The notes below the pieces were generated by a model. That model was not told the origin of the DNA, searched no databases, and saw only the letters and a list, made by a program, of their open reading frames with translations. Source: an uncultured Spirochaetota bacterium (GTDB lineage: Bacteria; Spirochaetota; Spirochaetia; JAFGXN01). Taken from it: 64,000 nt of DNA. Location of the stretch: assembly GCA_944388995.1 (NCBI GenBank), contig CALXKN010000007.1, forward strand, positions 4,732 to 68,731. The letters run 5' to 3'. This document shows positions 13,201-47,108 of the stretch, piece by piece. The number at the start of each line of letters is the position of its first letter. The stretch's first letter is position 1. Both the position numbers and the translations under genes were made by a program.

Positions 13201-15667
13201 AGACCGTCTGCTCCTGCCGCGTTTCGTTTTCCGTTTTGACGGCGGTCACCCGGAAAACGGTCTGCCCTTTCACCCGCCGGCATTCAAAAGCGGCCGCCTC
13301 CGGATGCGTCAAAATCTCCGTTGCCAACGGATCTTCGATTTGAGAACGCAGGGCGCGGCGCATCGTTCTTGCCCCGTAAGCGGGATCGAATCCGGTCTTC
13401 ACCAATTCATCGCGGACAGCCGCGTCGATTTTCAGGCGGATGCCGATATTTTTCATCCGTCCGATGACTTCCCGGCAGAGCAGATCGACGATTTCGCGGA
13501 TCTGCGGCTCTTTCAGGGAGTCGAACACGACGATTTCATCCAGCCGGTTGATAAATTCCGGTGACAGAAAGCGTTTGGCCTCCGCCGTCGCCGACTGTTT
13601 GATTTCAGCGTAACTTTTCCATCCCTTTTCAGCCGAAAAACCCAACCGGCCGCCTTTGTTCAGATCCTTCGAACCGAGATTACTCGTCATGATGATAACG
13701 GCGTTGCGAAACGATACTTTATGCCCGAGACTGTCGACCAATTCGCCCTCCTCCAGCACCTGCAGCAGCAGATGAAAAACATCGGGATGGGCTTTTTCGA
13801 TTTCGTCCAGCAAAACAACGCAGTACGGACGCCTGCGCACCGCTCCGGAAAGAAGACCTCCGTCTTCGAATCCGACGTATCCGGGAGGCGCTCCGACCAA
13901 TTTGGAGACGTTGTGTTTTTCCATATAATCGGACATATCGACGCGGATCAACGCTTCCGGACTGCCGAAGAGCTTCTCGGCCAATGTCTTTGCCAGATAG
14001 GTTTTTCCGACGCCGGTCGGTCCCAAAAAGAGAAACGATCCGGAGGGGCGCCGCTCCGAAGCCAAACCGACGCGGGAACGGCGGATCGCGGAAGAGAGCG
14101 CCGCCACGGCCGCCTCCTGACCGATGACGGTACGGTTGAGCTCCTCTTCTAAATGCAGCAGACGGAGGGTTTCACTCTCGGCTAATTTTTCGGCAGGAAT
14201 TCCGGCGGCAACAGAGACGACGCGCAGAATATCGTCGGCTGTGACAACGCTGCGCTGCTCCGCATTCCGGTTCCGCCACTGGGCTTCAGCCGCCGCCTTT
14301 TCCGATTCCAGGCGCCGGACGGCGTCCCGCTCCTTTGCCGCCTCTTCGAAACACTGCCGGCCGACAAAAGCGGTTTTTTTCGCATTTCGGGCGCGGATTT
14401 TCTCTTCCAGTTTGAGAATTTCGGCCGGTTTCTCACTGCGTTCAATCCGTTTTTCGGCGCCGGCTTCGTCAATCAAATCAATCGCTTTGTCGGGCTGAAA
14501 ACGCTCGGTCAGATAACGGTTCGACGCGGAAACAGCCGTCTCAATCGCCTCCCGGGTATAGACGACGCGGTGGTGTTCGCCGTAGCGGCGGACAATTCCG
14601 AAGAGGATTTCCCGCGTCATTGCTTCGTCCGGTTCCTCAACGTAAATATTTTGAAACCGGCGGACCAAGGCGGCGTCGTTTTCAATCCGGCGGCGGTATT
14701 CTTTAACGGTTGTCGCTCCGATACACCTGAAATCGCCGCGGCTGAGAGGCGGTTTCAGGATATTGGCGGCGTCGATGGCTCCTTCCGAACCGCCGGCTCC
14801 GACAATGGTGTGAATTTCGTCGATAAAAAGAATGATGTTGCTGCGCTCCGTTACGATTTGAATCAGCTTCTTCAGCCGGTCTTCGAATTCCCCGCGGTAC
14901 TTCGTGCCGGCTACGACCGATCCCATATCCACCCGAAGAATTCTTTTATCCTCAAGTCCGTCGGGAACCGTTCCGGCCGCAATCCGCTGCGCCAAACCCT
15001 CTACCAGCGCAGTCTTTCCGACCCCCGGTTCCCCAAGCAGCAGCGGGTTGTTTTTACGCCGCCGGCTTAAAATCTTCATCATGCGTTCGATTTCTTTTTC
15101 GCGGCCGATAATCGGATCACAATCACCGGCAGCCGCCTGCGCAACCATGTCTTTCGTATACAAAGAGAGAAATTCGTTTTTCCGATTCTCTTCCTCAAGT
15201 TCCTTCGGCGTTCTGACCCGTTCAGAGCTCTCTTTTTTTGCCGCGGAAGGAAAAAAAAGACGGCCGTCCGCGATGAAGGGGCGGCACGGCGAATCTTCCG
15301 CTTCGGCTGCCGTCCGGAAAAGAAAAAGCACATCTCCGCAAAACCCCTCGGGCGCCGAAGAAATTTTTTCGGAGAGCCGCGCAAGAAAACCGGCATACCG
15401 CCGGGACGGCTGCGGCAGAAAAGACCGTTCTTCCCCCGCGGCGGTCTGCGCCACCGACTTTTTCAACTCTTCGGTCAGCTTCTGACGCGAACGGTCGGAA
15501 TCGAAACACTCCCGCGGCTTATACTTTTCCAAAACCGCCAGAAGCAAATGTTCGGGTTCGATCGATTTCGCGGCGAAACGGACGGCGGTTTCCCGAACCC
15601 CGTTGAGCAGCAGCTGCTCGGCGTCGTAATTCAGTCTTTGAGACACAAAACCTCCGATTTTCCGCAA
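13190..15667 (-). CDS. clpC: ClpC/ClpA-type Hsp100 AAA+ ATPase (two AAA modules, ClpP-interaction loop present)
   Basis: Clp N-domain. D1 Walker A GEPGVGKTA and Walker B ILFIDEIH. D2 Walker A GPTGVGKTY and Walker B VVLLDEIEKAH. GRLGFSAE loop (ClpP-binding (V/I)GF-type). Exact start ambiguous because it overlaps mcsB by 37 nt. Confidence 0.85.
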   Translation of the reverse strand: MRKIGGFVSQRLNYDAEQLLLNGVRETAVRFAAKSIEPEHLLLAVLEKYKPRECFDSDRSRQKLTEELKKSVAQTAAGEERSFLPQPSRRYAGFLARLSEKISSAPEGFCGDVLFLFRTAAEAEDSPCRPFIADGRLFFPSAAKKESSERVRTPKELEEENRKNEFLSLYTKDMVAQAAAGDCDPIIGREKEIERMMKILSRRRKNNPLLLGEPGVGKTALVEGLAQRIAAGTVPDGLEDKRILRVDMGSVVAGTKYRGEFEDRLKKLIQIVTERSNIILFIDEIHTIVGAGGSEGAIDAANILKPPLSRGDFRCIGATTVKEYRRRIENDAALVRRFQNIYVEEPDEAMTREILFGIVRRYGEHHRVVYTREAIETAVSASNRYLTERFQPDKAIDLIDEAGAEKRIERSEKPAEILKLEEKIRARNAKKTAFVGRQCFEEAAKERDAVRRLESEKAAAEAQWRNRNAEQRSVVTADDILRVVSVAAGIPAEKLAESETLRLLHLEEELNRTVIGQEAAVAALSSAIRRSRVGLASERRPSGSFLFLGPTGVGKTYLAKTLAEKLFGSPEALIRVDMSDYMEKHNVSKLVGAPPGYVGFEDGGLLSGAVRRRPYCVVLLDEIEKAHPDVFHLLLQVLEEGELVDSLGHKVSFRNAVIIMTSNLGSKDLNKGGRLGFSAEKGWKSYAEIKQSATAEAKRFLSPEFINRLDEIVVFDSLKEPQIREIVDLLCREVIGRMKNIGIRLKIDAAVRDELVKTGFDPAYGARTMRRALRSQIEDPLATEILTHPEAAAFECRRVKGQTVFRVTAVKTENETRQEQTVYEF

Positions 15668-16698
15668 AAAATATCTTTTAAAACCCGCGCGCGCAAATGG
15701 TCGCAGAGAAGCGGCTCGCCGCTATCCGGAAACTGCCGGCGGAAACGGTTCAGTGAACTCTCCTTTAAAAAATCAAAGAGACGGTTGAGTGTCGAACAGG
15801 AGAAATCGGCCGCTCCGGCAAGAACGGCAGTCCGGATAATGTCCAAAAGCCGGTAAGACTCCGAAAGGGTCATTTTTACCGAGGAATGAATCCGCTCCAA
15901 CGCATCGCGGTAACGGCTGTTGATTTGTTCTATCTGTTCCGGCTTCCACTCCCTCCGTTTCAGCCGTTCCATTTTGACAATGGTACTCAAATTTTTCGCA
16001 AACCGCTCAAGCATCCGGGTTTCCGGTTCGCCGTCCGACGCAACGGAGGTTACCGTCAAAACACCGGGAACGGTTTCCTTGAGATCCGGACACAGATACG
16101 GCTCGATTTTCAGATTCTCGGCAGCCGCGATTTTCAGCAGCCGGTTTCCTTCGTCGGTTTGGTTCAGCGCCGGAAGGGAGAGCAGAACCTCGGCCTCGAT
16201 TCCCGCTCCCGTCAGATCCAAGCGGCCGTTCAGGTATCCGTACCGCAATGAAACCGCATAAGGAAAGACCGTTTCCAGCCGGCGGTCGCATCCGATGACG
16301 GCTACCGCCGCGTGAAACAGTTCAAATTCGGGAACGACCGCCCTCAACTCGATTTGTTCCCGGTTCAAAAAAAGCAGCGCCGCGGCGTTGTCGTACAGAT
16401 AAAAAGACGCCGGCACCGCCAGACGGCCGTAGTCGCCGGGAAGGATTCCCCGGTCGCGGTAATAATCAAAATTCGCTCCGACTGCTTTTTCCGCGCGGAA
16501 AAGATTCCGCTGTGATTCGGGCAGATGCGACAGGCGCTCTTTCACGCGGGTCATAAAGCGGTGGGAATCCGCCGCCGACATCTTCTCCGGGAACGGAAAA
16601 TCCGCCATACTGCGGAACAGGGAAACGCGGGAACGGATCACGCAGTCGCCGAAAGAGACAAATTCCCTGTCCCGTGAAACATCAATTTCTTCATTCAT
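15631..16698 (-). CDS. mcsB: McsB-like protein (protein arginine kinase family); catalytic motifs look degenerate
   Basis: N-terminal VIRSRVSLFRSMADFPFPE matches the McsB VLSSRIRLARNF..FPT block. Colinear similarity across the domain. Sits between mcsA and clpC. Expected CPTN(V)GTGLRAS reads NGRLDLTGAGIEAE and NEEDH reads NREQIE. Confidence 0.65.
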   Translation of the reverse strand: MNEEIDVSRDREFVSFGDCVIRSRVSLFRSMADFPFPEKMSAADSHRFMTRVKERLSHLPESQRNLFRAEKAVGANFDYYRDRGILPGDYGRLAVPASFYLYDNAAALLFLNREQIELRAVVPEFELFHAAVAVIGCDRRLETVFPYAVSLRYGYLNGRLDLTGAGIEAEVLLSLPALNQTDEGNRLLKIAAAENLKIEPYLCPDLKETVPGVLTVTSVASDGEPETRMLERFAKNLSTIVKMERLKRREWKPEQIEQINSRYRDALERIHSSVKMTLSESYRLLDIIRTAVLAGAADFSCSTLNRLFDFLKESSLNRFRRQFPDSGEPLLCDHLRARVLKDIFCGKSEVLCLKD

Positions 16699-22464: not shown

Positions 22465-23919
22465 TCACATATTGTCATAAACTTTGATATAATCAATCAT
22501 ATCGATAATCAGTCCGGCCGCCATCATCGCATCCAGCACAATACTGACCGTAAAAAGCATTGCCATTGATTTGTATCCGAAAATGATCTGCTGACGCTGA
22601 ACGGCGTTGTCCTCGGTGGCGTCGGGAATCGAATTCAAAAAACGCGTCTGATAACCGCTTGACAAAAGCGTCATCGGAATGGAAACCGCCAGACCGGCAA
22701 TGTTAAAGTAAAAATCCTTCCTTTTCTGCTTCAGGTATTCGTCGCGGTTGAACGCCGTCGACTTCAGCACAAAATCGAGATTGGTGTTTCCGTCCGGAGT
22801 CAGCGCCGACACCAAGTCGAGGTAACCGTCTTTTTTCAGCATCAGAGGCTCGTTCAAACCGCCGTTTTCAACCAAAAACGGCGTGGCGCCGACCCAAAGC
22901 GACGACAGATAGATGTCGGCTCCCGGCGGATAGGTATTGACGACGACCGGCGGAACCGTATTGCGGATTAAGGCGACCGAGAGGGTTTTGGTCTCCTTCG
23001 GATTCAGAACCAGTTCCACCTCTTCACCGACATACCCGGGAGCTTCAATGGTCATCACATAGGTTCCCGGCACAATGCTGTTATTGCGGTAGACACCGGA
23101 ACCGCTGTATTTTTCCCCGATCTGAATCGAAGCGGTAATCGGCAGTACCGAAACCGTCAGGTCGGCCCACTCGTGACCGACAATGACCGTAATCAAATCG
23201 TTTAAATGTCCGGCAATTTGTCCTTCAATGATATCGGGCGATCCGCCGCCTTCGGCTTCAAAGACAATCCTGTCCAAAACCGACGAATAAGCTCCCACGC
23301 GGTAATACATATAACCGGCCATCTCTTCCAGCTGCCCGAAAATCAGCAAATCCGCCTTCTTTTCCTCGGCAAACTGCTTCTGCTTATCGGTGACCGGGGC
23401 AAACAGTTCGCTGCTGTCGCTCTCTCTCAGAACGACGATGGCCCGTTCCGGATTGATTTCGATGTCTTGCGGTTTAAATTCCGTCAGAAAACGGATCTTT
23501 TTGTTCAGTTCGTCCCTTTTTTGGAGCAGATCCCATTCCTTTGTCTGCCGCGCGTTCAGAATTGACGGCTTGAAAACCTCAAAATCCAGATCGTCAAACG
23601 ATTTGCGCAGATCAGCCGCCTCTTTCAAAACCGTCTGCCGGGCATTTTCAATGATTTTTTCGGCGTACTTCAACCGTTCTTCTTCGGAAAAAATATGCGT
23701 CTGATAATTCAGGATTGTTGTGTAAATTTTCAGCGGCAGGCTCGAGGCCAAGTAACGGTTTTCCAATGAGATATTCCTCGTATCAAAAAAAGAGACCGCA
23801 ACGTTCCACTCCGCCGTTCCGTCTTTCAGCGAGAGCGTTTCCTCATAATCGACCTCTTCGGCAGACAAGGCGCCGAGCCCCGCGAGGAAAAAAATTCCCG
23901 AAAACAGTAACCGCCGCAT
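22465..23919 (-). CDS. secreted PEGA-domain protein
   Basis: Start taken at MRRLLFSGIFFLAGLGALSA (ATG 23919, adjacent to the prfB stop). C-terminal region with EAPGY and beta-sandwich-like repeats (PEGA-like), followed by a TM segment. Confidence 0.45.
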   Translation of the reverse strand: MRRLLFSGIFFLAGLGALSAEEVDYEETLSLKDGTAEWNVAVSFFDTRNISLENRYLASSLPLKIYTTILNYQTHIFSEEERLKYAEKIIENARQTVLKEAADLRKSFDDLDFEVFKPSILNARQTKEWDLLQKRDELNKKIRFLTEFKPQDIEINPERAIVVLRESDSSELFAPVTDKQKQFAEEKKADLLIFGQLEEMAGYMYYRVGAYSSVLDRIVFEAEGGGSPDIIEGQIAGHLNDLITVIVGHEWADLTVSVLPITASIQIGEKYSGSGVYRNNSIVPGTYVMTIEAPGYVGEEVELVLNPKETKTLSVALIRNTVPPVVVNTYPPGADIYLSSLWVGATPFLVENGGLNEPLMLKKDGYLDLVSALTPDGNTNLDFVLKSTAFNRDEYLKQKRKDFYFNIAGLAVSIPMTLLSSGYQTRFLNSIPDATEDNAVQRQQIIFGYKSMAMLFTVSIVLDAMMAAGLIIDMIDYIKVYDNM

Positions 23920-23921
23920 TC

Positions 23922-25031
23922 TCACCCGGCAGACTCTCCCTTTGCGTCCCATTTCAAAAACGCTTCCATAAATTCGCTGATGTTTCCGTCCATTACGGCC
24001 TGAATATTGCCTTTTTCGTGTTTGGTGCGGTGGTCTTTGACCATCGTGTACGGCTGGAACACATACGAGCGGATTTGATTGCCCCAGGAAATCTCTTTCT
24101 TCTCACCGTTTTGTTTCTCCCGCTCTTCGTCCTGCTCTTTTTTGTAAAGATCGTAAAGCCGCGAACGGAGCATATTCATTGCGGTTGCGCGGTTTTTGAT
24201 CTGACTGCGTTCGTTCTGGCACTGAACGACGATGCCTGTCGGCAAATGGGTGATGCGGACGGCGGAGTCGGTCGTATTGACATGCTGTCCTCCGGCGCCC
24301 GACGAACGGTAAGTATCAATGCGTAAATCTTCGGGACGGATATCGACTTCAATATTTTCATCCATAACGGGAGAGGCAAACACGGATGCAAACGAAGTGT
24401 GGCGGCGCGCGTTGGAATCAAACGGCGAAATGCGCACCAAACGGTGAATGCCGGTCTCGCCTTTCAGGTAACCGTAAGCGTAAAGGCCTTTAATCTGAAC
24501 CGTCACCGATTTCAGGCCTCCCTCCGCCTCCAAAATATCCAGCAGTTCGGTTTTGTAACCGCGCATTTCGGCCCACCGCAGATACATCCGGTAAAGCATG
24601 GAAACCCAATCGCACGCTTCCGTTCCCCCGGCTCCCGAATGGATGGTCAGATACGCGTCCGCCCTGTCAAATTCGCCGTTAAGCAGTTCAATCAGCCGCA
24701 GCTCTTCGTACAACTTTTCGGCATCCGTCAAAGAACGGCTCAACTCTTCCTGCCACGACGGATCGCTGTCGCTCTCCGCCATTTGGAGAAGTTCGGTAAT
24801 GTCATCGTAGTCGCAAAACAGTTTTTTCCAGGACTCGGCGCGTTTTTTCATTGCCGTCAGTTCATTCAGAACCGCTTCGGCCTTCTCCCGATCGTTCCAG
24901 AAGTCGGGCGCGCATGACAGCGCTTCCTTCTCCGCAATTTTCGCTTCCGATGCGGATAAATCAAGATCCCCGCGAATTTCATTAATTTTTATTCCAAGGG
25001 AACGGACCGCCGCTTTGAGATCATCCAGCAC
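23922..25031 (-). CDS. prfB: peptide chain release factor 2, encoded in a single frame (no +1 frameshift site)
   Basis: GGQ motif (SGAGGQHVNTT) and SPF tripeptide (RISPFDS). GTG start preceded by GGTGG. Codons 22-27 read GGG GAT CTT GAT TTA TCC, so there is no CTT TGA shift site. Confidence 0.9.
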   Translation of the reverse strand: MLDDLKAAVRSLGIKINEIRGDLDLSASEAKIAEKEALSCAPDFWNDREKAEAVLNELTAMKKRAESWKKLFCDYDDITELLQMAESDSDPSWQEELSRSLTDAEKLYEELRLIELLNGEFDRADAYLTIHSGAGGTEACDWVSMLYRMYLRWAEMRGYKTELLDILEAEGGLKSVTVQIKGLYAYGYLKGETGIHRLVRISPFDSNARRHTSFASVFASPVMDENIEVDIRPEDLRIDTYRSSGAGGQHVNTTDSAVRITHLPTGIVVQCQNERSQIKNRATAMNMLRSRLYDLYKKEQDEEREKQNGEKKEISWGNQIRSYVFQPYTMVKDHRTKHEKGNIQAVMDGNISEFMEAFLKWDAKGESAG

Positions 25032-25073: not shown

Positions 25074-27032
25074 TCAACCGCGGACAACGGATCGGACGAT
25101 ATTCAGAGCGACGCCGAAAAAACAGGACGATTCGGCCTTTAAATCAAACTTCCAGACAACCTTGACGGAAACGTGCTGATACAAGGAACACCTCTTTCCG
25201 TCCGCATCCGTTTCGGCGTAAACCGGCATTACAAAAACGTCGCACGGCGCGCCGAAAAAATTCAAAGTCAGCGCCGTATCATTTGCGCCGTCACTGAGTT
25301 TCAGGCTCTTCGGGCAGCGGAAACGGTGCGCCCGGTCGATCGACGCAGAGTCGTGCGGACCGGAAACTTCTGCCGAACAAAGGGCGCAGTCGCTGAAAGA
25401 CAAATTGAGCTCCGTTCCGAAATAACGGGAGAGGTTTTGATTTCCCGTGCTGTCGAAGCGGTACTCAACGGACACATCGTTACGTTTAAGAATGTAATCC
25501 TTGCTCATTTCGATGTCATCGGGAAGCTGGAGTGAAAACCTCAAAACGCGTTTTGCTTCATTAAACGATTCCGACTTATAGGAAAAATCACTCAAATCGC
25601 ACTGAAAGTCCGCAGGATCCAAAACACCGCCGATCTTTTCGTAATCCTCCGAAAGAATAAAAAAATCCTGAAAACAGGCGGCACCGCGGCGCAAAAACCG
25701 GCCGAATTCGCAGTTTTCATCATAATCACAAAAAGTATTGATGTAGTTGAACGACGACGGCAGGTAATCCAATTCGCGGATCGTCGCTCCTTTCCGGTGA
25801 AACAGGGCAATCAGCGTCGGTCCGTAATGAAAGATTTCAGTTAAGCCGTCGTTGTCGAAGTCGATTTCCCTCACCGCGGCGGCGGTTTTCCGCAAAACCT
25901 TCTCGACAGAAATCAACGCGGTATACGATTTTTGACGCGCGGCCGCATCGAAAACCCCGGCGTCACCGGCTTTTCTCATCGGATAGGCCGCCTGCCCTTC
26001 GGCTAAAACGTCGGCGCACTGCTTTTGTTCGGCTTTCGGAAGGGTTTTCAGATACGATTCAATATAACGGATGCGGTGGTAGATGTGTGCCGCTTCCCGG
26101 TATTTGATCAAAAAATTGCGGAAAGCTCCCCGCCTGAACAATGTTTTGCAGTCGGTGGAATCAAACTGCCGGGAAAAGAGATCATAATTGCGCCGCTGTC
26201 CGTCAAAAAACATTCTGCCGGCACATCCGTCGCCGACGGAAGCGGAAATATAAACCGGTTTCAAGTCTTTTGCTTTTTTGACGGCGGTTCCCGGATGCGC
26301 AAAAAGGAACGAAGCGGCGCCGCACAGTCTGATAAAGCGGGCCATCCACTCGTAATCGCCGGCATTCAGCGTAAACCCGTTTTTAAAAACCGTGACCGTA
26401 TCGTCGCGGCAGGTTGCGCCCAGCCGGCTTAAATTATCAAAATATCCGTCGGCGGGAACCTCGCAAAACGGCTGTGAAAGCGACTCAATCACCGGAAAGA
26501 GGTAGAGCAAATGACCCTGCTCTTCCGTTATAAAAACATTGAACATATCTTTTGCGGAAAATCCGCAGGCGCGGATAACCGAATCATCGATGAATGTGTA
26601 AAGAAAACCCATCGCGTTCAAAATTGACGGAAACGACGCTTCCCAATTACCGTCGTTCAGCCAAAAACCTTTCGGACGGACGCCTTTGCCGACCGAATCC
26701 CTGACGGCTGTGAAGTGTTTTTCGATTTGATACGCACAGCTGCGGCGCGAAATCAGCTGCAGCGGCGGTTCATAGTATCCGCTTGAAAGAAATTCGATTT
26801 GCTTGTGTTTGGAGCAACAGGTCCGCAACTGAAGCAGACACTCAGGGTGCCGTTTTTTCAGCCATGCCGTCAGATTGCCGCTGAAATAAAGCGTTACTTT
26901 GAATTTCGGAAAACGCAGCAACAGTTCGACAAGAGGAACAACAGACTGCCGGTAGAGTTCTTCCGCTTCAGGCTCTTTAAAACAGGGAGGCAAAGAAAAA
27001 TGGAGTCCGACAATCAGAGAAACGCTGCCCAC
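25074..27032 (-). CDS. glycoside hydrolase family 57-like protein (possibly non-catalytic)
   Basis: N-terminal blocks IVGLHFSLP, FPKFKVTLYFSGNLTAWL, KQIEFLSSGYYEPPLQLI and GFWLNDGNW align by eye with GH57 (HNHQP, MKVAIHTSGPLIEWL, GFYEPVL, WLTERVW). Confidence 0.5.
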   Translation of the reverse strand: MGSVSLIVGLHFSLPPCFKEPEAEELYRQSVVPLVELLLRFPKFKVTLYFSGNLTAWLKKRHPECLLQLRTCCSKHKQIEFLSSGYYEPPLQLISRRSCAYQIEKHFTAVRDSVGKGVRPKGFWLNDGNWEASFPSILNAMGFLYTFIDDSVIRACGFSAKDMFNVFITEEQGHLLYLFPVIESLSQPFCEVPADGYFDNLSRLGATCRDDTVTVFKNGFTLNAGDYEWMARFIRLCGAASFLFAHPGTAVKKAKDLKPVYISASVGDGCAGRMFFDGQRRNYDLFSRQFDSTDCKTLFRRGAFRNFLIKYREAAHIYHRIRYIESYLKTLPKAEQKQCADVLAEGQAAYPMRKAGDAGVFDAAARQKSYTALISVEKVLRKTAAAVREIDFDNDGLTEIFHYGPTLIALFHRKGATIRELDYLPSSFNYINTFCDYDENCEFGRFLRRGAACFQDFFILSEDYEKIGGVLDPADFQCDLSDFSYKSESFNEAKRVLRFSLQLPDDIEMSKDYILKRNDVSVEYRFDSTGNQNLSRYFGTELNLSFSDCALCSAEVSGPHDSASIDRAHRFRCPKSLKLSDGANDTALTLNFFGAPCDVFVMPVYAETDADGKRCSLYQHVSVKVVWKFDLKAESSCFFGVALNIVRSVVRG

Positions 27033-27042
27033 ACCCGTTTTC

Positions 27043-27849
27043 CTACTTTATTCTGACAATACAGCGAACGGGACACTTTTCCGCCGCTTTCGCCCGATCT
27101 CCGGAACGGGTATAATCGATTTCCGCCAAAAACCCGTTCATGACAAATCCGCCTTCGGGGGAATTTTTAACGCACAAAGAACACCCCAGACAGCCGACGC
27201 CGCAGTCCGCTTTCGTCTGAACGCCTTTTCCCGGGTGGGAGCACGCTACCGCGTAATCGGCCGACTCGGGAATCATGCGGATGACATTCATCGGACACGC
27301 TTCGACACATTTCCGGCAGGAGACGCACTTTCTCCGGTCGACGACAACCCGCTTCTGTCTGTCCCGGTAAATGGCGTTGACGGGGCAAACTTCCATGCAG
27401 CTGCCGCCTCCGAGACAGCCGTACTTGCATTTTTTCGAACCTTTGTAAAAAAGCGCCCGGCTGTTGCAGTCATCCAACCCGCTGTAAAGAAACTGTCTTT
27501 CCGGGGCGTCCGCCGCAGCGGCGTGGCAGGCAATGAAGGCCTTTTCCGGCTCTGCCTGCGCCTCCACCTTTTGACCCATAATTCCGCCGATTTTCCGCAA
27601 TCCGTCGGCGCTTAAAGACGTACACCGCGTTAAAGGCGCGCCGTTTAAAACAACCGCCTCGGCGTAGGCGGCGCAGCCGGCAAAACCGCAGGCGCCGCAG
27701 TTCGCTCCGGGAAGAATCTCTTCGATTTGCTCAATCCGCTCTTCTTTCGGAACCGACAGGAAACGCGAGGCAAGCGCAATAATAAAGCCGAGCAGAAGTC
27801 CGACGGACAACACGATCATGACGGATGCAAACAGAATCAGAAAACTCAT
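27043..27849 (-). CDS. rnfB: Rnf complex subunit B (Fe-S)
   Basis: N-terminal TM, CGACGFAGC cluster motif, and two 4Fe-4S ferredoxin motifs (CMEVCP and CVEACP). Confidence 0.85.
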   Translation of the reverse strand: MSFLILFASVMIVLSVGLLLGFIIALASRFLSVPKEERIEQIEEILPGANCGACGFAGCAAYAEAVVLNGAPLTRCTSLSADGLRKIGGIMGQKVEAQAEPEKAFIACHAAAADAPERQFLYSGLDDCNSRALFYKGSKKCKYGCLGGGSCMEVCPVNAIYRDRQKRVVVDRRKCVSCRKCVEACPMNVIRMIPESADYAVACSHPGKGVQTKADCGVGCLGCSLCVKNSPEGGFVMNGFLAEIDYTRSGDRAKAAEKCPVRCIVRIK

Positions 27850-27858: not shown

Positions 27859-28458
27859 TCACTCTGCCGGAAACAGATTGGCGATCATGGAGCTGCTGAA
27901 CGCCATAAACGCCAAAGCCATGGCTCCGGCCGTAACAAACGCAACCGGCACCCCTTTAAAGGGTTCCGGCACCTTCTCCAACGAAAGCTTCTCCCTTAAA
28001 AACGACATGATGATCAGAACCATCAGGAATCCGATCCCGCCGGACATTCCGGCCACAAGCGATTCCAGCGCTCCGTAATTTTCATCAACCGCAATGATGG
28101 CGATTCCCAAAACCGCGCAGTTGGTGGTAATCAGAGGCAGATAAATTCCCAGCGCTTTGTAGAGCGCCGGAGAAAATTTACGGATAACCAGCTCGACCAA
28201 CTGAACCAAGGAAGCGATCACCAAAATAAAGACAATGGTTTTCAGAAATTCGATTCCCAGCGGCGCCAAAATCCCGTGATAAATCACCCATGTCAGAACC
28301 GATGTGATCGACATGACAAAAATAACGGCAAACCCCATTCCGACCGCCGACTCCCGGTTGCGGGAAACCCCGATAAACGGGCAGAGCCCCATAAATTTCG
28401 ACAGAATGAAGTTATTGACCAGCACAAACGAAAAGAAGATAACAACCAAATTCATCAT
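27859..28458 (-). CDS. rnfA: Rnf complex subunit A
   Basis: About 199-aa polytopic protein. GLCPFIGVS and YLPLITTNCAVLG blocks typical of RnfA/NqrE. Confidence 0.9.
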   Translation of the reverse strand: MMNLVVIFFSFVLVNNFILSKFMGLCPFIGVSRNRESAVGMGFAVIFVMSITSVLTWVIYHGILAPLGIEFLKTIVFILVIASLVQLVELVIRKFSPALYKALGIYLPLITTNCAVLGIAIIAVDENYGALESLVAGMSGGIGFLMVLIIMSFLREKLSLEKVPEPFKGVPVAFVTAGAMALAFMAFSSSMIANLFPAE

Positions 28459-29105
28459 ACGGAAGCTCCTTTCCGCGCATCTTTGCCGGGACGGCTGCGG
28501 TACTGCTTAACGGCATTAATGCCGGCAATCACAAAACCGACAACGAAAAGCGCTCCGGCCGGCGTTGCCAAAACCGAAACCGGCGCTTCGCTCAATCCGG
28601 GAATGACAAAACGGTAAACCGTCGAACCCGATTCCCAAAGCGTCAGCGTTCCCGCTCCCAAAATTTCGCGGATAAACGCAATCAGCATCAGCGAAAGCGT
28701 GAATCCGATTCCCATGCCCAAACCGTCCAAAACCGACGGCAGAAGTCTGTTCTTCCCGGCAAACGCTTCGGCCCGCCCCAAAACGATGCAGTTGACGACA
28801 ATCAGCGGAATGAAAATACCCAGCCCGCTGTACAGTACCGGCGAAAACGCGCGCAGCATCAATTCGACAATCGTGACAAAGGTCGCGATAATGACGATAT
28901 ACCCGGGAATGCGCACCTGATTCGGAATGATTTTTTTCATCAGGCTGATGACGGCGTTGGAGCAAACCAACACGAAGATGACGCCGAGTCCCATGCCGAT
29001 GGCATTGAAAAACTTTCCGGAGACTCCCAACGTCGGGCACAGTCCCAAAAGCAGCATCAGCACCGGATTTTCGCGGAAAATTCCTTTTGTGAGTTCTTTA
29101 ATCAT
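28455..29105 (-). CDS. rnfE: Rnf complex subunit E
   Basis: GLCPTLGVS and IPLIVVNCIVLGRAE blocks (RnfE/NqrD family). Confidence 0.9.
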   Translation of the reverse strand: MIKELTKGIFRENPVLMLLLGLCPTLGVSGKFFNAIGMGLGVIFVLVCSNAVISLMKKIIPNQVRIPGYIVIIATFVTIVELMLRAFSPVLYSGLGIFIPLIVVNCIVLGRAEAFAGKNRLLPSVLDGLGMGIGFTLSLMLIAFIREILGAGTLTLWESGSTVYRFVIPGLSEAPVSVLATPAGALFVVGFVIAGINAVKQYRSRPGKDARKGASV

Positions 29106-29757
29106 CGGCTCCTCCTTCAGCGATAAAAGCGGCGCCTGAAGCGAGCGCGGCGGCCACGGCTTTAAACGTCACGGTTGCGCCGGCCAAAGCGTCAGACTCG
29201 GATTTCGGCAGCTCTTCGCGGCTCTGCGGAAGCGGTTTTCCGGGCGCGCCGAATCCTTTGAATTTATCCATGTAGCCGGGAAGCGCCGCTTTTTTTCCGA
29301 TTCCGGGAGTCTCGGAATCGCTGACCACAACCGCGTCTTTTACGCTTCCGTCCGGCGCGTAATATGCCAGAATCAGCATATCTCCGCCGTATCCCTTTCC
29401 GGTCAGCTCCAACACATAGCCAAGCATCTGCCCGCCGTCGTAAACATCATAGATGCGGCTGATTCCCAAGCGGTTTTCGACAGCGCGTCCGTTGCGGACG
29501 GAGGCGCTGCCGTCCGGGTTTTTGGCACGCGTCTCGATTTTATGGAAACCGACAGCGTAATACGTGTCGATGCTTTCATTGCCTCCGTTGACCAACGCAT
29601 TCAGCGACTGTTCGGTTGACAGCTCCGTATTGCGGTCGATCAGCGGTTTTGTAAACTTGTAAACAAAGCCCAAAAGCAGAGCAGCCGCCGCGCAAATCAG
29701 CGCCAGCGTTCCTGAAATTCGCAGGATTTCCAATTGATCGGCTTTCGTCAGTTTCAT
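29098..29757 (-). CDS. rnfG: Rnf complex subunit G (FMN-binding)
   Basis: N-terminal TM and ETPGIGKK FMN-attachment-like motif (S/TGxG). Confidence 0.8.
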   Translation of the reverse strand: MKLTKADQLEILRISGTLALICAAAALLLGFVYKFTKPLIDRNTELSTEQSLNALVNGGNESIDTYYAVGFHKIETRAKNPDGSASVRNGRAVENRLGISRIYDVYDGGQMLGYVLELTGKGYGGDMLILAYYAPDGSVKDAVVVSDSETPGIGKKAALPGYMDKFKGFGAPGKPLPQSREELPKSESDALAGATVTFKAVAAALASGAAFIAEGGADD

Positions 29758-30905
29758 GCATTGCCTCCTTTTCCGACTCCAACCCTGCGCTTCTTTTTAA
29801 CTCCATAACGGCGGGGAATGAAAAGCCGGTCCAGCATCGGTACGGTCAAATTCATGAAAACAATCGCCAGCGAAACCCCTTCGGGAAAAGAACCGTAATA
29901 CCGAATCAGAAAGGTCAGCAACCCGCATCCGATACCGAAAAGAAACATCGAGCCCCGGCGGAACGGCGAGGTCACCATATCGGTCGCCATGAAAAAAGCG
30001 CCGAGGAAGAGACCGCCGCTGAAAATCTGATAAACCACATCTCCGGAAAAAAAACCGGTTCCCGCGCGCAGTCCGCCGAAAACCCAAACGGCCGCCGCAA
30101 ACGATCCGATAAAAGCAACCGGAATTTCCCAGTGGATGATCTTTTTCGCTATCAGAAACAATCCGCCCAGCAGAAGCAAAAACACCGAAATTTCCCCGAT
30201 ACAGCCGCCTTTGATACCGAAAAACGCATCAAAGTAGCCGTAGCAGAAGTTTTCTCCGAAAAGCGAGTTGATTTTGTCGGTGACGGCGGCGTCGTACTTT
30301 GAAAGCGAGTAATGCTTCAGTGAAAGCACTTCCATTTCATTTGAGATTGAACCGGCATATTCGGGGACGGAACTTTTCAGAAATGTCAGCGGAGTGGCCG
30401 ACGTCATCGCGTCCCCCGTCGCGCCGGCGACGGTGAGGCCCGATTCCAAAATCGTGCGCGGCGTCTGAAAAGTGAACATCGCCGACGACCACGAAAAAAA
30501 CGCGATAAGCCGTCCTCCCAAAGCGGGGTTGATGATGTTGCAGCCCAAACCGCCGAACGCGCCTTTAAAGACGATGACCGCCGCCAAAGAGGCAATCGCG
30601 GGAATATACAGCGGAACCGACGGCGGCATGTTCATTCCGACCAGCAGTCCCGTCAGAACAGCCGAACCGTCAGACAGCGTATTTTTTTTCCGGATAAGAC
30701 AGATTGCCCCCTCTCCGGCCGCGGCCGCCGCAACGGAAACCGCCAGAACCGCCGCCGCGTACCAACCGAACTGATACACTCCCCACAGAGCCGCCGGCAG
30801 CAACGCCAGAATCACGTAAACCATGATCCGGGCCGTCGAACGCGGACTCCGAATCTGAGGAGAAGAGGCAACCGAAAACTGAAATTCCTGTTTTTTCCGC
30901 TTCAT
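29754..30905 (-). CDS. rnfD: Rnf complex subunit D
   Basis: Polytopic protein with GNIINPALGGR and GEIS...LGG blocks typical of RnfD/NqrB. Confidence 0.85.
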   Translation of the reverse strand: MKRKKQEFQFSVASSPQIRSPRSTARIMVYVILALLPAALWGVYQFGWYAAAVLAVSVAAAAAGEGAICLIRKKNTLSDGSAVLTGLLVGMNMPPSVPLYIPAIASLAAVIVFKGAFGGLGCNIINPALGGRLIAFFSWSSAMFTFQTPRTILESGLTVAGATGDAMTSATPLTFLKSSVPEYAGSISNEMEVLSLKHYSLSKYDAAVTDKINSLFGENFCYGYFDAFFGIKGGCIGEISVFLLLLGGLFLIAKKIIHWEIPVAFIGSFAAAVWVFGGLRAGTGFFSGDVVYQIFSGGLFLGAFFMATDMVTSPFRRGSMFLFGIGCGLLTFLIRYYGSFPEGVSLAIVFMNLTVPMLDRLFIPRRYGVKKKRRVGVGKGGNA

Positions 30906-32224
30906 TTCTTTCTCCCCATCCTTTTTCCTTTTTTAAACGCCTGCACCAAATAAATCCCCGCCGGGCAGGCGTAGGCACAGCAGCCGCACTCCTTGCAGTC
31001 GGGCAGACCGGCCGCCGCCGCTTTTTCGTATTCGCCGGCCTGAATCAACTTGTACATCATTGCCGGCGGCAATCCCATCGGACAGACGGAAACGCAGCTT
31101 CCGCAGTGAAGGCAGGCGGTTTGCGGTTTGTCGCAGACCTCTCCGGCAGTCAGAGCCAAAACACCGCCGGTACTTTTTGTAACGGGAGTGTCCCAATCGG
31201 CGAGCGCAAACCCCATCATCGGGCCGCCGACAACAATCTTTTTGACTTTCGAAAAATCTGTCCGGCATTCGGTCAGCAAATCCCGGACCGGCACGCCGAT
31301 ACGTGTTTTCAGATTTGCGGGATCGGCGACGGCGCCGCCGGAAACGGTCACAATCCTCTCCGTCAGCGGCCGTTTCAGAACGACGGCGTCAAAAACCGAT
31401 TTGGCCGTCGCGACATTGCAGACCACACATCCGGCGTCAATCGGCAGAGCTCCGGAAGGAACCTCTCTTCCTGTCAGAGCCCGAATCAGCTGCTTCTCGT
31501 CACCCTGCGGATAGCGGACCTTCAGCATCTCCACCGCATACGGCCGCTTTGAATGCGCAACCGCTCCGCGCAGTTTTCCGGCCGCTTCCGGCTTATTGGC
31601 CTCGACGGCTATGATCACCTTATCCGCCTCCGTGATTTGCGCCAAAATATCGATCCCCTCCAAAACTTCGTCGGTATACTCGAGCATGACGCGGTAATCG
31701 GCGCACAGATACGGCTCGCATTCGGCGCCGTTGATAATCAGATATTCGGCCTTCTTCCCCTTCGGCACAGCGATTTTGACATGAACGGGAAATGCCGCTC
31801 CGCCTAAACCAACCAAACCGGCTTCCCGAATCTGCCCTGTCAGCTCCTCGCGGGAAAGACCGACCCACCTGTCATTAATCCGTCCGTCCTCAACAGACTC
31901 AAAGGTTCCTTCAATTCTCAAATAAACAGCCTGACTGGAAGAACCGTTGGGCAGCGTCAGAGGCCCGACCTTTTCGACAACGCCCGGAAAGGGACAATAG
32001 ACGTGAGCGGAAATCAGTCCGTTTGCCCGTCCGATCAACTCCCCTTCCGCCACCGTATCGCCCGGTCTGACAAGGCACTCGGCCGGCGCCCCCAAATGCT
32101 GCCCCATCGGAATGACGGCCCGCTGTCCGAAGTAACTGTTGCGGATCGGACGGTCTGCCGCCAATCTTTTTTTGTCATCGGGATGAACGCCGCCCCGCCC
32201 GAAGGTTTTCAGTCGCTGTTTCAT
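30902..32224 (-). CDS. rnfC: Rnf complex subunit C
   Basis: Start taken at MKQRLKTF (ATG 32224), immediately after the upstream stop at 32227. IINGAECEPYL NADH-binding block and two C-terminal 4Fe-4S motifs (CLHCGSCVSVCP and CKECGCCAYACP). Confidence 0.85.
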   Translation of the reverse strand: MKQRLKTFGRGGVHPDDKKRLAADRPIRNSYFGQRAVIPMGQHLGAPAECLVRPGDTVAEGELIGRANGLISAHVYCPFPGVVEKVGPLTLPNGSSSQAVYLRIEGTFESVEDGRINDRWVGLSREELTGQIREAGLVGLGGAAFPVHVKIAVPKGKKAEYLIINGAECEPYLCADYRVMLEYTDEVLEGIDILAQITEADKVIIAVEANKPEAAGKLRGAVAHSKRPYAVEMLKVRYPQGDEKQLIRALTGREVPSGALPIDAGCVVCNVATAKSVFDAVVLKRPLTERIVTVSGGAVADPANLKTRIGVPVRDLLTECRTDFSKVKKIVVGGPMMGFALADWDTPVTKSTGGVLALTAGEVCDKPQTACLHCGSCVSVCPMGLPPAMMYKLIQAGEYEKAAAAGLPDCKECGCCAYACPAGIYLVQAFKKGKRMGRKK

Positions 32225-32226: not shown

Positions 32227-33717
32227 TTAATCCTTGTATTTGATTAAACGTATCTTCCGCTTCGAAACCCGAAAGAACGGAATTAAAAACGCAAAATATC
32301 CCGCCGCAACCGCAATCCAAACCGCGAAGGAACCTCTCGGAACCGTCCGCACGGCAACATCCCTGTCCGTCAAAAAATATGCAGACAGAGGATCTGATTT
32401 GACTTTTTTCATTATACTATCGAAACCGTCTTCTGTAAATATTTCGATCAAGATTTTTTCGTTACGGACGGAATTCCCTTCGTAAAAAAAGTGCGGAACC
32501 GTCACTTCATACCCGGGCGGCGGCAGCCGTTCCAGCTTTTCATAGCGGTAACTGTACTGAAAGACCTTTTCTTCAAGGTAACCGGCAGCGTTTAAAGTCC
32601 CCCGCTGCTGATTTTGAGTTTTTTCATAAATTTCTTCATAAGTTCTTGACCCAAAAAGCGGATCTGCCTTCTGCGCAGGATTTTCCGCCGGAACTGACAC
32701 CACAAAAATAAGCGCGCCGATTGGAAGAGCTGCCGTCAGCACTCCCAAAACTATTTCGGCAGCAGCACACTTCCACGGCAAACGATAATCCTTTCCGAAA
32801 AAAGGTTTTGGAATAAACTGAAACCCGTGCGGTCGGTTCACTTCCCGGACCACGGAAACAAACGCCAGAGAAAGACCGAAAAGCGACATTGCAACAGCAG
32901 CAACTGCCGCCAAACGCTCTCCGGGAAAAAACAAAGGAGGCAGAACGGCGCAAAAAACCGCGGCTGAAAGCTGCCCCGCAATCGATTTTTTGTCCTTCCC
33001 GGAAAACAAATCGACGCCGTTGAAAGTAAAGTACTCCCGCTGCGGCTGCCATTTCCGCCACAGAGACAGAAACACATTGCCGATAAAAACAGCCGCGCTC
33101 AGAACAAGAGCGTTACCGGAAAACAGCGCGGCCGCAAAAAGCACCGCCAAGAATAAAAGTCCTTTTCGGGATTTTCGTTGCACAAAGGACGAGAAAATCC
33201 AGGTAAGAATAACCGCTGACGTAAAAAAAACCGATTCCGCAACCGGCCGATGCTGTTCAACGGCGACCGCAGGCGCATCCGGGTACTCCATATTCCACTC
33301 CCTCAGCACTTCGGCAGAAAGCGGTTCTTTCAGTATAAACAACCTCATCGGACGTCCGTCTTCCTCAAAATCAAAAAGTTGCGGCAGCCGGGTCAAAAAC
33401 GGCGTTAGCCGATCGTCATCCGGTAAAAACCGATCCTTCAGCTCGCCTATGGTCAGCCTTTCCGGATTATAATGATCCAACTGAATCTCAATGTCGGCAG
33501 CGGAAAAAAAATCGATCCCTTTTTCTTTCAAAAAAAGTGCCGGAGCATCGCCCGATTCCGCCGGGAAAGCCGCAAACGGCGTGGCAACGTCCGCTCCCCC
33601 GTCACGCAGAAAAAGCAAAACCGCCGCGCTGCCGAATAAACAAAATAAAGAGAAGATGATCGCCGCTCGCGCGATTTTCATATGGCGCTGATTGAAAAAA
33701 GACGGAGACTCCTCCAT
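32227..33717 (-). CDS. hypothetical polytopic membrane protein immediately upstream of, and abutting, rnfC
   Basis: 496 aa, about 8 hydrophobic segments, large soluble loops. No recognisable catalytic motif. Confidence 0.5.
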   Translation of the reverse strand: MEESPSFFNQRHMKIARAAIIFSLFCLFGSAAVLLFLRDGGADVATPFAAFPAESGDAPALFLKEKGIDFFSAADIEIQLDHYNPERLTIGELKDRFLPDDDRLTPFLTRLPQLFDFEEDGRPMRLFILKEPLSAEVLREWNMEYPDAPAVAVEQHRPVAESVFFTSAVILTWIFSSFVQRKSRKGLLFLAVLFAAALFSGNALVLSAAVFIGNVFLSLWRKWQPQREYFTFNGVDLFSGKDKKSIAGQLSAAVFCAVLPPLFFPGERLAAVAAVAMSLFGLSLAFVSVVREVNRPHGFQFIPKPFFGKDYRLPWKCAAAEIVLGVLTAALPIGALIFVVSVPAENPAQKADPLFGSRTYEEIYEKTQNQQRGTLNAAGYLEEKVFQYSYRYEKLERLPPPGYEVTVPHFFYEGNSVRNEKILIEIFTEDGFDSIMKKVKSDPLSAYFLTDRDVAVRTVPRGSFAVWIAVAAGYFAFLIPFFRVSKRKIRLIKYKD

Positions 33718-44625: not shown

Positions 44626-44640
44626 GTCCGAACTCCTTTC

Positions 44641-45825: not shown

Positions 45826-45902
45826 AGGAAAATCTCCTCCGAAACAATGAAATAAAAAAGGAAATGACAGCCCCCGGAAGGAGGCTGCCGTCTCAACCGG
45901 AA

Positions 45903-46991
<1,089 letters not shown>

Positions 46992-47011: not shown

Positions 47012-47040
47012 ACTATATTCGAAATGCGGGCGGTTGTCAA
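47012..47040 (-). promoter_or_regulatory. sigma70-type promoter for the gap-pgk-tpiA-secG operon: -35 TTGACA, 17-nt spacer, -10 TATAGT
   Basis: Minus-strand read TTGACA (47040-47035), 17 nt, TATAGT (47017-47012). About 40-nt leader to the gap RBS. Confidence 0.55.
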
Positions 47041-47108
47041 GAAAAAAAGAAAGCAATCGGCCGTTTTTCGTTCTTCTCCCGCCTGGGGTCTCCTCAAAAA
47101 AAAAAGAG

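Follow-up and report, generated by a model that had tools for sequence, protein, structure and literature searches.

A GH57 4-alpha-glucanotransferase-like protein with replaced catalytic residues, encoded at the end of the spirochaetal rnf operon

Why should a protein related to the GH57 glycosidases, with its catalytic residues replaced, be encoded between the genes of the Rnf complex and prfB, and what might it do there? The question is raised by a 64-kb stretch of DNA from an uncultured Spirochaetota bacterium (the window), in which a first-pass annotation had recognized such a protein and suggested that its fold had outlived its hydrolase chemistry. Rnf has a central part in the energy conservation of anaerobic spirochaetes, and it is poorly defined in Treponema pallidum. 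The gene, here called GH57L, and its neighbors are arranged as follows.

23922–25031, minus strand: prfB, the downstream neighbor, after a 42-nt gap
25074–27032, minus strand: GH57L, a GH57 4-alpha-glucanotransferase-like coding sequence (652 aa, GTG start, TGA stop)
27033–27045, minus strand: rnfB-GH57L junction (rnfB stop codon TAG at 27045–27043, GTG start at 27032)
27043–27849, minus strand: rnfB (FeS and Fer4 domains), the gene immediately upstream
27859–32224, minus strand: rnfC-rnfD-rnfG-rnfE-rnfA, frames overlapping or abutting (−8 to +9 nt)
27859–28458, minus strand: rnfA
28455–29105, minus strand: rnfE
29098–29757, minus strand: rnfG
29754–30905, minus strand: rnfD
30902–32224, minus strand: rnfC
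32227–33717, minus strand: X, a multi-pass membrane protein of 496 aa, first gene of the cluster

Fold and active-site residues

The open reading frame occupies exactly the interval given above, and the GH57 kinship that had been proposed for the N-terminal half of its product is far above chance level. The Pfam profile PF03065 matches with E=4.1e-17 and 62.8 bits against a cut-off of 21.2 bits, in an alignment that spans only profile positions 64–204 of 291, and phmmer comparison with PDB 1K1W gives E=8.9e-27. Pfam also matched both the middle (PF09094) and the C-terminal (PF09095) domains specific to 4-alpha-glucanotransferases (4AGT); none of the NCBIfam profiles matched. The predicted model is confident and compact and contains the incomplete (beta/alpha)7 TIM barrel of GH57. 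Its best structural match by far, over 588 residues, is TLGT (PDB 1K1W/1K1X/1K1Y), the structural prototype of the GH57 4AGTs, while GH38 structures appear among the fold matches at a TM of only ~0.4. The fold of a TLGT-type enzyme is retained in full, with all three domains; these and the CSRs (placed by alignment) are located as listed.

26223–27032, minus strand: N-terminal (beta/alpha)7-barrel domain, aa 1–270, holding degenerate CSR-1 to CSR-4
25878–26222, minus strand: helical middle domain, aa 271–385 (PF09094), including CSR-5
25077–25877, minus strand: C-terminal beta-sandwich domain, aa 386–652 (PF09095, mutarotase-like)
26988–27002, minus strand: CSR-1, HFSLP (canonical HNHQP), aa 11–15
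26787–26804, minus strand: CSR-2, KQIEFL
26646–26663, minus strand: CSR-3, WLNDGN (canonical WLxERV)
26358–26387, minus strand: CSR-4, FKNGFTLNAG (canonical xDDGEKFGxW)
25971–25997, minus strand: CSR-5, GQAAYPMRK (canonical GQCN[CD]xYWH)

CSR-2 alone is recognizably conserved, and CSR-1, -3, -4 and -5 are degenerate. The substitutions described by the first-pass annotation were all recovered, with agreement among three independent alignments (HMMER; MAFFT). The hallmark motif of CSR-1 retains His11, but His13 is replaced by Ser and Gln14 by Leu. At the nucleophile position, Glu123 of TLGT has become Asp127 (codon 26652–26654), followed by Gly128 in place of Arg124. The acid/base region HDDGEKFG reads FKNGFTLN, a segment with neither Asp nor Glu, in which Asn218 (codon 26379–26381) stands for the acid/base Asp214, Lys217 for Asp213 and Phe220 for Glu216, and the acceptor-site Trp is gone. 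One of the reference motifs that the annotation had given was slightly wrong, the actual TLGT sequence being MKVNVHFSGPLLEWI, but what it said of the residues in the protein itself holds. Further losses affect the acceptor platform of TLGT (Y183, F187 and W221, here Q187, E191 and G225) and its auxiliary carboxylates (E216 and D354, here F220 and Y350, the D354 position reading Tyr or Ala). Trp124 and Trp130 are kept. All told, the protein shares three of the 18 functional positions of TLGT and has lost 15. In CSR-2, Glu80 shows no variation in the 47-sequence alignment (A2) and is kept in canonical and rnf-linked groups alike, whereas Lys77 is peculiar to the rnf-linked group and is Gly in the canonical one.

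The protein lacks the Glu nucleophile on beta4, the Asp donor on beta7 and the full set of five CSRs that mark an active GH57 enzyme, and also the aromatic platform and auxiliary carboxylates of an active 4-alpha-glucanotransferase (EC 2.4.1.25). Because the cleft residues are replaced, retaining hydrolysis or transfer of alpha-glucans is very unlikely. The cleft has been dismantled by the change of the nucleophile Glu to Asp and of the acid/base Asp to Asn, together with the loss of two more carboxylates and the aromatic platform. Since Asp127 is a conservative replacement and is conserved in the clade, the protein may have residual or altered chemistry. The idea of a GH57 fold deprived of hydrolase chemistry is thus supported by the alignments, which place Asp127 and Asn218 where Glu and Asp would be expected.

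Several other identities were considered and set aside. A scan of the 652 residues found neither a signal peptide nor a hydrophobic segment, so the protein is soluble, and a secreted or periplasmic amylase was rejected. An Fe-S or redox subunit was likewise rejected, as none of the 22 cysteines lies in a column of the 47-sequence alignment that is invariant or nearly so (at least 90%). A resemblance to CE4 deacetylases comes down to YTFIDD; this motif corresponds to the 'VDD' strand general to GH57 and is found in TLGT and the canonical homologue P0016 as well. Finally, a GH38-type mannosidase was dismissed for want of a PF01074 match at E≤1; a metal-site His/Asp motif of the GH38 kind was not seen by eye in the N-terminal strand GLHFSLPP.

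Linkage to rnf in the window and across spirochaetes

The position between the rnf genes and prfB, in the same direction, is as first described; to this it should be added that the genes are on the minus strand, so that rnfB is upstream (10-nt gap) and prfB downstream (42-nt gap). An AGGA Shine-Dalgarno-like motif (27044–27041) lies 8 nt upstream of the GTG and overlaps the rnfB stop codon, and no terminator-like hairpin was found in the 10-nt gap; the promoter and terminator scans matched shuffled-sequence level and served only to note hairpin-free junctions. In the window, the tightly spaced co-directional string runs on past GH57L, and co-transcription alone is therefore not specific. The adjacency of prfB is kept only inside the clade of the query protein, which places prfB outside the conserved module. 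The rnf cluster of the window is canonical, having rnfB and a recognizable FMN-binding RnfG. X is kept at the same position in spirochaete rnf clusters. Only eight homologues of it were found, its predicted model is of low confidence (pLDDT 66, pTM 0.49), a fold search with that model gave no significant match (best E=0.1, TM≤0.22), and Pfam returned only a sub-threshold 'Sensor' match.

A genome scan was seeded with a 9-sequence alignment, the 47-sequence alignment being too divergent as a seed. Of 38 spirochaete genome loci that could be assessed, 33 have the orthologue directly 3' of rnfA or rnfB and in the same orientation. The same adjacency was seen on nine further metagenome or draft-genome contigs, including that of Treponema primitia. 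Outside the query's clade the orthologues are only 25–27% identical, and the downstream genes differ between loci. Adjacency is broken in four Alkalispirochaeta loci, of which three have a ~6-kb opposite-strand insertion between the gene and rnf and one (L026) has no rnf within the available 5.5 kb of upstream sequence; a degenerate homologue, P0103, is also without rnf linkage. The contig of P0065 extends too little upstream for its context to be judged. By comparison, none of the four catalytically intact relatives is rnf-linked, and two of them lie within alpha-glucan clusters. Conserved position within the rnf cluster across lineages, which we took as the mark of an Rnf accessory gene, is found here: the GH57-like gene recurs at the end of the rnf operon across spirochaetes. 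It occurs in canonical clusters with rnfB and in noncanonical ones without it, and a replacement for RnfB was rejected on that ground.

The rnf-linked proteins differ in what remains of the active site. Some, of the Alkalispirochaeta type, retain both Glu and Asp and, by their residues, may be active enzymes; the ancestral linkage may therefore have been metabolic and not structural. In other orthologues at the same operon position the nucleophile is replaced by Gly, Arg, Ala, Leu or Cys, and it follows that the function conserved in the rnf-linked family is independent of that carboxylate. A Q..RGDK..K motif is common to seven of eight rnf-linked lineages and is missing from the query's clade. 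Residues whose conservation is peculiar to the rnf-linked group lie mostly in the C-terminal domain (G404, H412, L424, Y430, Y513 and N584); R381 is another of them.

Selection and the likely role of the protein

GH57L is under strong purifying selection. Against an 85%-identical orthologue, dN/dS is 0.093 for the N-terminal barrel and ~0.09 in each of the three domains, with dS unsaturated. The query's clade is isolated, forming one 50%-identity cluster with its next relatives at ~29%. The closest genome records, at 85%, 62% and 61% identity, are MAGs labeled Spirochaetes, Spirochaetales or Spirochaetia, and the annotation of homologue P0011 gives a Spirochaetia bacterium as its source. Across the clade, at 57–100% identity, WLNDGNW (with Asp127) and K217-N218-G219-F220 are strictly conserved. 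Among lineages the CSRs vary greatly, and in several nearer relatives only CSR-1 is lost, Glu and Asp being retained.

We consider it somewhat probable that the product is a soluble cytoplasmic protein without catalytic activity whose function is tied to the Rnf complex of spirochaetes. From synteny only, which is indirect evidence, we infer functional coupling to Rnf. GH57L is kept as the final gene of a spirochaetal cluster X-rnfCDGEA(B)-GH57L, whose junctions are short enough for translational coupling. The most likely role would be a non-catalytic one connected with Rnf, a ferredoxin:NAD+ oxidoreductase: the protein might, for example, be produced along with the complex as an accessory, assembly or regulatory factor at its cytoplasmic periphery. 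Physical binding to the complex is speculative, and we regard as doubtful the narrower proposal that the protein is a true peripheral component of an Rnf complex particular to spirochaetes, or a factor dedicated to its assembly.

An unlikely alternative is that the protein is a stand-alone, non-catalytic binder or sensor of alpha-glucans (glycogen or maltodextrin), its position reflecting inherited gene order with no role in Rnf. Ligand binding often survives in pseudoenzymes, the entire 4AGT architecture is kept, including the mutarotase-like C-terminal and helical domains, a surface sugar-binding site has been proposed at the domain 2/3 interface of archaeal enzymes, and Glu80, Trp124 and Trp130 remain. 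However, the aromatic platform and all four cleft carboxylates are replaced, and no alpha-glucan metabolism genes were found in the window or in annotated related loci; the absence from the window also led us to reject a place in a glycogen locus. Moreover, adjacency to rnf persists at 25% identity while the downstream neighbors turn over, unlike what neutral inheritance would give, and T. pallidum keeps the gene in a reduced genome despite completely degenerate CSRs.

The strict conservation around Asp127 and Asn218, with a barrel as constrained as the other domains, is also what would be expected of a neofunctionalized enzyme in which Asp127 serves as nucleophile or base, like the Asp of GH38, and another residue as acid, in a different chemistry or on a different substrate. 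GH57 and GH38 have the fold and the nucleophile position in common, GH38 structures are among the fold matches, and the nearer relatives that have lost CSR-1 alone can be read in the same way. We nevertheless judge this quite improbable: no carboxylate is found at or beside the acid/base position, the −1 subsite His13 and the equivalent of Asp354 are gone, Pfam gave no GH38N match at E≤1, and some orthologues at the rnf position have no carboxylate at the nucleophile site. That GH57L is a decaying, functionless relic of a former glucanotransferase gene, as the loss of 15 functional positions and the divergence of the CSRs might suggest, is effectively refuted by the low dN/dS in all three domains, the full-length intact frame in every lineage examined, the confident compact model and the retention in T. 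pallidum.

Comparison with known systems

The non-catalytic, Rnf-tied reading can be set beside what is known of related proteins. RnfH is a lineage-specific accessory protein of proteobacterial rnf operons, and PnsB2, a mutarotase-fold subunit of chloroplast NDH (PDB 9grx chain 2), was only one of dozens of mutarotases matched; the GH57-like protein has no specific relationship to either. TLGT-type enzymes with intact motifs differ from it in not being rnf-linked (four examined). Homologues are labeled 'alpha-amylase', '4-alpha-glucanotransferase' or 'glycosyl hydrolase' in the sources, and such labels call for caution, as they would point mistakenly to a part in starch or glycogen metabolism.

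To our knowledge, the pseudoenzyme group to which the protein belongs has been described in silico and never assigned a function. This 4AGT-like group comprises 63 bacterial sequences, mostly from Treponema, Spirochaeta and Sphaerochaeta and including T. pallidum AAC65134.1/O83182 (Martinovicova & Janecek 2018, 3 Biotech 8:307, PMC6037648). As far as that description goes, the group and our protein are alike in their three-domain 4AGT architecture of ~620–670 aa, their spirochaete origin and the retained KQxExL of CSR-2; one or both catalytic residues are missing in the group and both are replaced here, so that the protein agrees in architecture, catalytic loss and bacterial, spirochaetal origin. 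Unusually, its nucleophile position holds Asp and its acid/base position Asn, and its CSR set (HFSLP/KQIEFL/WLNDGN/FKNGFTLNAG/GQAAYPMRK) occurs in none of the 63 members listed. T. primitia, a species on that list, has the operon position described above, and the passages and supplementary table of PMC6037648 that bear on the group do not discuss gene context or Rnf. The GH57 'alpha-amylase-like' proteins, with incomplete catalytic machinery and a proposed non-enzymatic role (Janecek & Blesak 2011, as cited in the same passages), are both archaeal and bacterial and differ in being nearer the ~440-aa alpha-amylase specificity than the three-domain 4AGT. The pseudoenzyme type has thus already been described, and the operon context is the new result.

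The T. pallidum orthologue was not among the best 120 profile-search matches, in which the treponemes are termite-gut and related ones. From gene order, TP0147 is probably the T. pallidum GH57-like protein, AAC65134.1 (619 aa). Cotranscription of tp0147–tp0153 has been reported (RT-PCR, 'data not shown'), with TP0152 as RnfC, TP0151 as RnfD and TP0149 resembling RnfE in a 'noncanonical Rnf' unit, and the nature of tp0147 was not commented on (Deka et al. 2015, mBio 6:e00519-15, PMC4436053). The order of these seven genes matches X-rnfC-rnfD-G-E-A-GH57L in Treponema loci. If the protein were indeed a subunit or dedicated assembly factor, a glycosidase scaffold would have been taken up by an ion-pumping ferredoxin/flavodoxin:NAD+ oxidoreductase, and GH57L would account for one of the 'unidentified components' of noncanonical Rnf in T. 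pallidum. In this operon context, what looked like a dead amylase becomes a testable hypothesis on the make-up or regulation of spirochaete Rnf, the group behaving as an orthologous family bound to the 3' end of rnf operons throughout Spirochaetota, including the lineage of the syphilis agent, both where Rnf is noncanonical, as in T. pallidum, and where, as in the window, the cluster has rnfB and an FMN-binding RnfG.

An open reading frame with a dismantled GH57 active site

The first-pass annotation had placed the gene between prfB and the rnf genes, and this position proved exact: rnfB precedes it and prfB comes after. Its observations stood, with the strand corrected to minus and small errors found in the reference motifs it quoted. 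The locus contains the following features.

25074-27032, minus strand: GH57-like protein (GH57L), 652 aa, GTG start
32227-33717, minus strand: X, 496-aa membrane protein, 2 nt upstream of rnfC
23922-25031, minus strand: prfB (RF2), 369 aa, GTG start

The GH57L start lies 10 nt past the rnfB stop codon, which is overlapped by a Shine-Dalgarno-like AGGA 8 nt upstream of that start. The protein matched the Pfam GH57 family PF03065 (E=4.1e-17, 62.8 bits against a 21.2-bit cut-off) as well as PF09094 and PF09095, which are both specific to GH57 proteins of the alpha-amylase/4-alpha-glucanotransferase type; a search of NCBIfam gave no match. Its sole solved relative by sequence is the Thermococcus litoralis 4-alpha-glucanotransferase TLGT (1K1W, E=8.9e-27), so the GH57 relationship claimed earlier is borne out. 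The protein is assigned the GH57/TLGT fold and a cytoplasmic location.

In the 1K1W alignment, GIHNHQP pairs with GLHFSLP, WLTERVW with WLNDGNW (Glu123 to Asp127) and HDDGEKFG with FKNGFTLN (Asp214 to Asn218). These assignments were identical in MAFFT alignments with up to 157 homologues, and the window coordinates of every motif were verified by translation. The substitutions read in the first pass (HxHQP to HFSLP, nucleophile Glu to Asp-Gly, acid/base region KNGFTLN) were thus recovered, and the catalytic columns hold Asp127 and Asn218, not Glu and Asp. Four catalytically important carboxylates are described in the literature (TLGT E123, D214, E216 and D354, equal to PfuAmyGT E131, D222, E224 and D362), along with a +1 to +3 acceptor platform of three aromatics (PSGT Y181, F185 and W219, equal to TLGT Y183, F187 and W221). 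When 18 functional positions were scored in a MAFFT alignment anchored to TLGT numbering, 14 canonical enzymes were near-invariant (H-H-Q-E-W-E-R-Y-F-D-D-E-W-N-C/D-Y-W-H). The window protein retains only H11, E80 and W124; the other 15 positions read S13, L14, D127, G128, Q187, E191, K217, N218, F220, G225, A349, Y350, M352, R353 and K354. The whole cleft is dismantled, beyond the loss of a catalytic dyad, which argues against canonical retaining chemistry and against glucan binding in the former cleft. The proposed loss of hydrolase chemistry is supported by the 15 missing residues.

Linkage to rnf genes across spirochaetes

The gene order in the window is X-rnfC-rnfD-rnfG-rnfE-rnfA-rnfB, then GH57L, then prfB, with intergenic distances of -8 to +42 nt. 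Within the clade of the window protein the adjacency to rnfB is constant and that to prfB is not, as contigs encoding the homologue P0013 carry a convergent Pyr_redox_2 gene instead. Scanned at one genome per species, GTDB yielded 45 loci, 43 with spirochaete record titles; rnf genes were sought in the loci by tblastn with the window Rnf proteins and noncanonical Rnf proteins from two loci. The nearest upstream same-strand gene was an rnf gene, within ~120 nt, in 33 of the 38 assessable spirochaete loci; automated scoring gave 31, and L007 and L027, which it missed because of spurious overlapping ORFs, were added from coordinates. Linkage notwithstanding, GH57L identity outside the window protein's own clade is only 25-27%.

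Two cluster types were found: X-rnfCDGEAB-GH57L (the window protein's clade, Oceanispirochaeta and others) and X-rnfCDGEA-GH57L without rnfB (Treponema and Alkalispirochaeta/Spirochaeta), the latter confirmed with Pfam in L022 and L027. Metagenome contigs encoding the homologues P0014 and P0015 fit these two types, as does the draft genome of cultured Treponema primitia (GCA_000297095.1). What lies downstream of GH57L differs: it can be prfB, metG or the gene of a convergent secreted protein that L044 and L027 have in common. Locus positions are listed below.

L022 4432-9946; L027 4550-9956; L054 2577-7997; L059 3284-8955: rnf clusters without rnfB, Treponema and Alkalispirochaeta/Spirochaeta
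L044 12048-13400; L027 11992-13272; L025 11892-13142, minus strand: convergent protein downstream of GH57L, 416-450 aa
L033 3459-9620 (also L023, L045): opposite-strand block of prfC, ABC-F ATPase and three-subunit 2-oxoacid:ferredoxin oxidoreductase
L020 2646-5962; L025 7473-11878: GH57L directly after rnfC (L020) or rnfC-rnfD (L025), related MAG loci, ~50% identity to window proteins
L058 8001-10007: P0103, degenerate GH57 protein of the 4AGT-like kind, motifs SFIFP / WNCLGS / NFNGLDW

The RnfG/E/A-like genes of the rnfB-less clusters are very divergent, and are barely detected or missed by Pfam. The convergent protein, for which Pfam gave no match, has an apparent signal peptide and lies just 3' of GH57L in several lineages, with 32% identity between the copies of L044 and L027 (E=3e-62). 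In the L044, L027 and L025 genomes, the transcription unit that runs in the rnf direction ends at this gene.

Several loci depart from this close linkage. The gap between rnf and GH57L is ~0.6 kb in L031, and in three Alkalispirochaeta loci the opposite-strand block (~6.3 kb) separates rnfA from GH57L; GH57L of these genomes keeps both catalytic residues. For a fourth Alkalispirochaeta locus, L026, no rnf gene was found in the 5.5 kb of available upstream sequence. Neither L020 nor L025 has a detectable rnfG, rnfE, rnfA or rnfB anywhere in the locus, their rnf clusters being either truncated or split. None of four controls with fully canonical motifs (L041, P0016, P0123, P0151) had rnf nearby, and two of them adjoin other GH57 or GalT-like genes. 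P0103 is also not rnf-linked, its gene being flanked by groES and an ornithine carbamoyltransferase gene, so what is linked to rnf is the spirochaete family, and a dead GH57 protein as such need not be. P0103 shares Asn-Gly at the acid/base position with the window protein.

Within the rnf-linked family, Glu and Asp are both kept in the Alkalispirochaeta type, Glu alone in L015, L016, L025 and L044, and neither in Oceanispirochaeta, Treponema and the window protein's clade. Because the replacements differ among all three, the losses look independent, with gene and position kept, as would be expected of a conserved role that needs no glycoside chemistry. A lineage-weighted comparison of eight rnf-linked lineages with canonical proteins identified 44 positions conserved in both groups, which make up the core of the fold, 20 that are invariant in canonical proteins but lost from the rnf-linked ones and cluster around the cleft, and 17 conserved in the rnf-linked group only. 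Nine of the 17 are kept in the window protein (K77, T108, R381, G404, H412, L424, Y430, Y513, N584), and most of these belong to the C-terminal domain. The helical domain of seven of the eight lineages has a Q..RGDK..K motif that canonical enzymes lack; the window protein's clade lacks it too and reads YLKTLPKAEQK there (window protein positions ~327-336).

X is a multi-pass protein with ~7 hydrophobic segments, two soluble regions and only 3 Cys, and its homologues come first in both canonical and noncanonical (rnfB-less) spirochaete rnf clusters. Its evolution is fast: identity is 52% and dN/dS 0.25, against 87-98% identity for the Rnf subunits. No Pfam family scored above threshold, no fold match was obtained with a low-confidence model, and a word search returned only 8 homologues. 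On the other side of GH57L, prfB is a single uninterrupted ORF, apparently without the programmed +1 frameshift that many bacterial prfB genes have. The next gene, for a PEGA-domain protein (22465-23952), shares 31 nt with the 3' end of prfB.

Possible roles of GH57L

The window protein has lost 15 of the 18 functional residues, and its gene keeps a place at the end of spirochaete rnf clusters, with short junctions. This suggests that GH57L would be made together with Rnf and have a non-catalytic role linked to it, be it accessory, assembly or regulatory. Speculatively, it could dock on the cytoplasmic face of the complex, at RnfB, RnfC or loops of X. We regard it as rather unlikely that the window protein belongs to Rnf as an accessory subunit proper. 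No recognizable motif marks it as an Fe-S or flavin carrier, and no Cys is conserved. It is also not a simple substitute for RnfB, since clusters with rnfB carry it as well as clusters lacking rnfB. Some rnf-linked orthologues may, from their residues, still be enzymes, in which case the linkage could first have arisen for metabolic reasons, and of an ancestral dual role the window protein could have kept only a part.

The binding protein offered as an alternative in the first pass, here a stand-alone glucan-binding protein whose gene order is historically inherited, is disfavored by the dismantled cleft. This reading is weakened by the loss of the aromatic platform, by downstream neighbors that turn over where upstream ones do not, and by the lack of alpha-glucan genes in the window: none for glycogen or alpha-glucan metabolism was found among the annotated ORFs of the 64 kb, which are a subset of all ORFs there. 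Other genes annotated there include:

37321-39528, minus strand: GH3 glycosidase
43873-46982, minus strand: gap-pgk-tpi glycolysis cluster
47024-48178, plus strand: aldose 1-epimerase
15631-16698, minus strand: ATP:guanido phosphotransferase, McsB-like
13190-15667, minus strand: ClpC/ClpB-type AAA+ protein, next after the McsB-like gene

Together the last two resemble a spirochaetal quality-control pair based on protein-arginine phosphorylation.

A neo-functionalized enzyme using Asp127 is likewise weakened, as the acid/base is missing and orthologues in the same operon slot have non-acidic residues at that position. A decaying relic is refuted by dN/dS: the gene is under purifying selection, with a value of 0.090 against the 85%-identical orthologue in L007 (dS = 0.83, unsaturated). 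By domain, the barrel gave 0.093, the helical domain 0.053 and the C-domain 0.102, which is comparable to the 0.119 of RnfB and the 0.054 of RnfC. The altered motifs HFSLP, WLNDGNW, FKNGF and GQxAYP are kept through the clade down to 57% identity.

Relation to described proteins and clusters

According to the supplementary table of Martinovicova and Janecek (2018; PMC6037648), the 4AGT-like group, whose proteins are missing one or both catalytic residues, is almost wholly spirochaetal, with members from T. denticola, T. primitia, Spirochaeta, Sphaerochaeta and T. pallidum (AAC65134.1/O83182; conserved sequence regions KLTEA/KRLELL/FLEASA). None of the listed members carries the set of regions seen in the window protein. 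An exhaustive search of 1.84 billion representatives placed its clade in one 50%-identity cluster, with the next relatives at ~29% identity. Together, the unmatched set and the lone cluster point to a new, isolated sub-clade within this already described class.

The linkage to Rnf appears from these gene orders to be phylum-wide and previously unremarked, a literature search having found no paper linking Rnf, spirochaetes and GH57, and it yields a testable hypothesis. Deka et al. (2015; PMC4436053) reported, from RT-PCR with data not shown, that a seven-gene unit in T. pallidum, tp0147-tp0153, is cotranscribed; its order corresponds to X-C-D-G-E-A-GH57L of the Treponema loci. Given this match, TP0147 is very probably the GH57-like protein of Janecek's table, and TP0153 is probably the counterpart of X. 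The "noncanonical Rnf" of T. pallidum is matched by the rnfB-less clusters of Treponema and Alkalispirochaeta/Spirochaeta.
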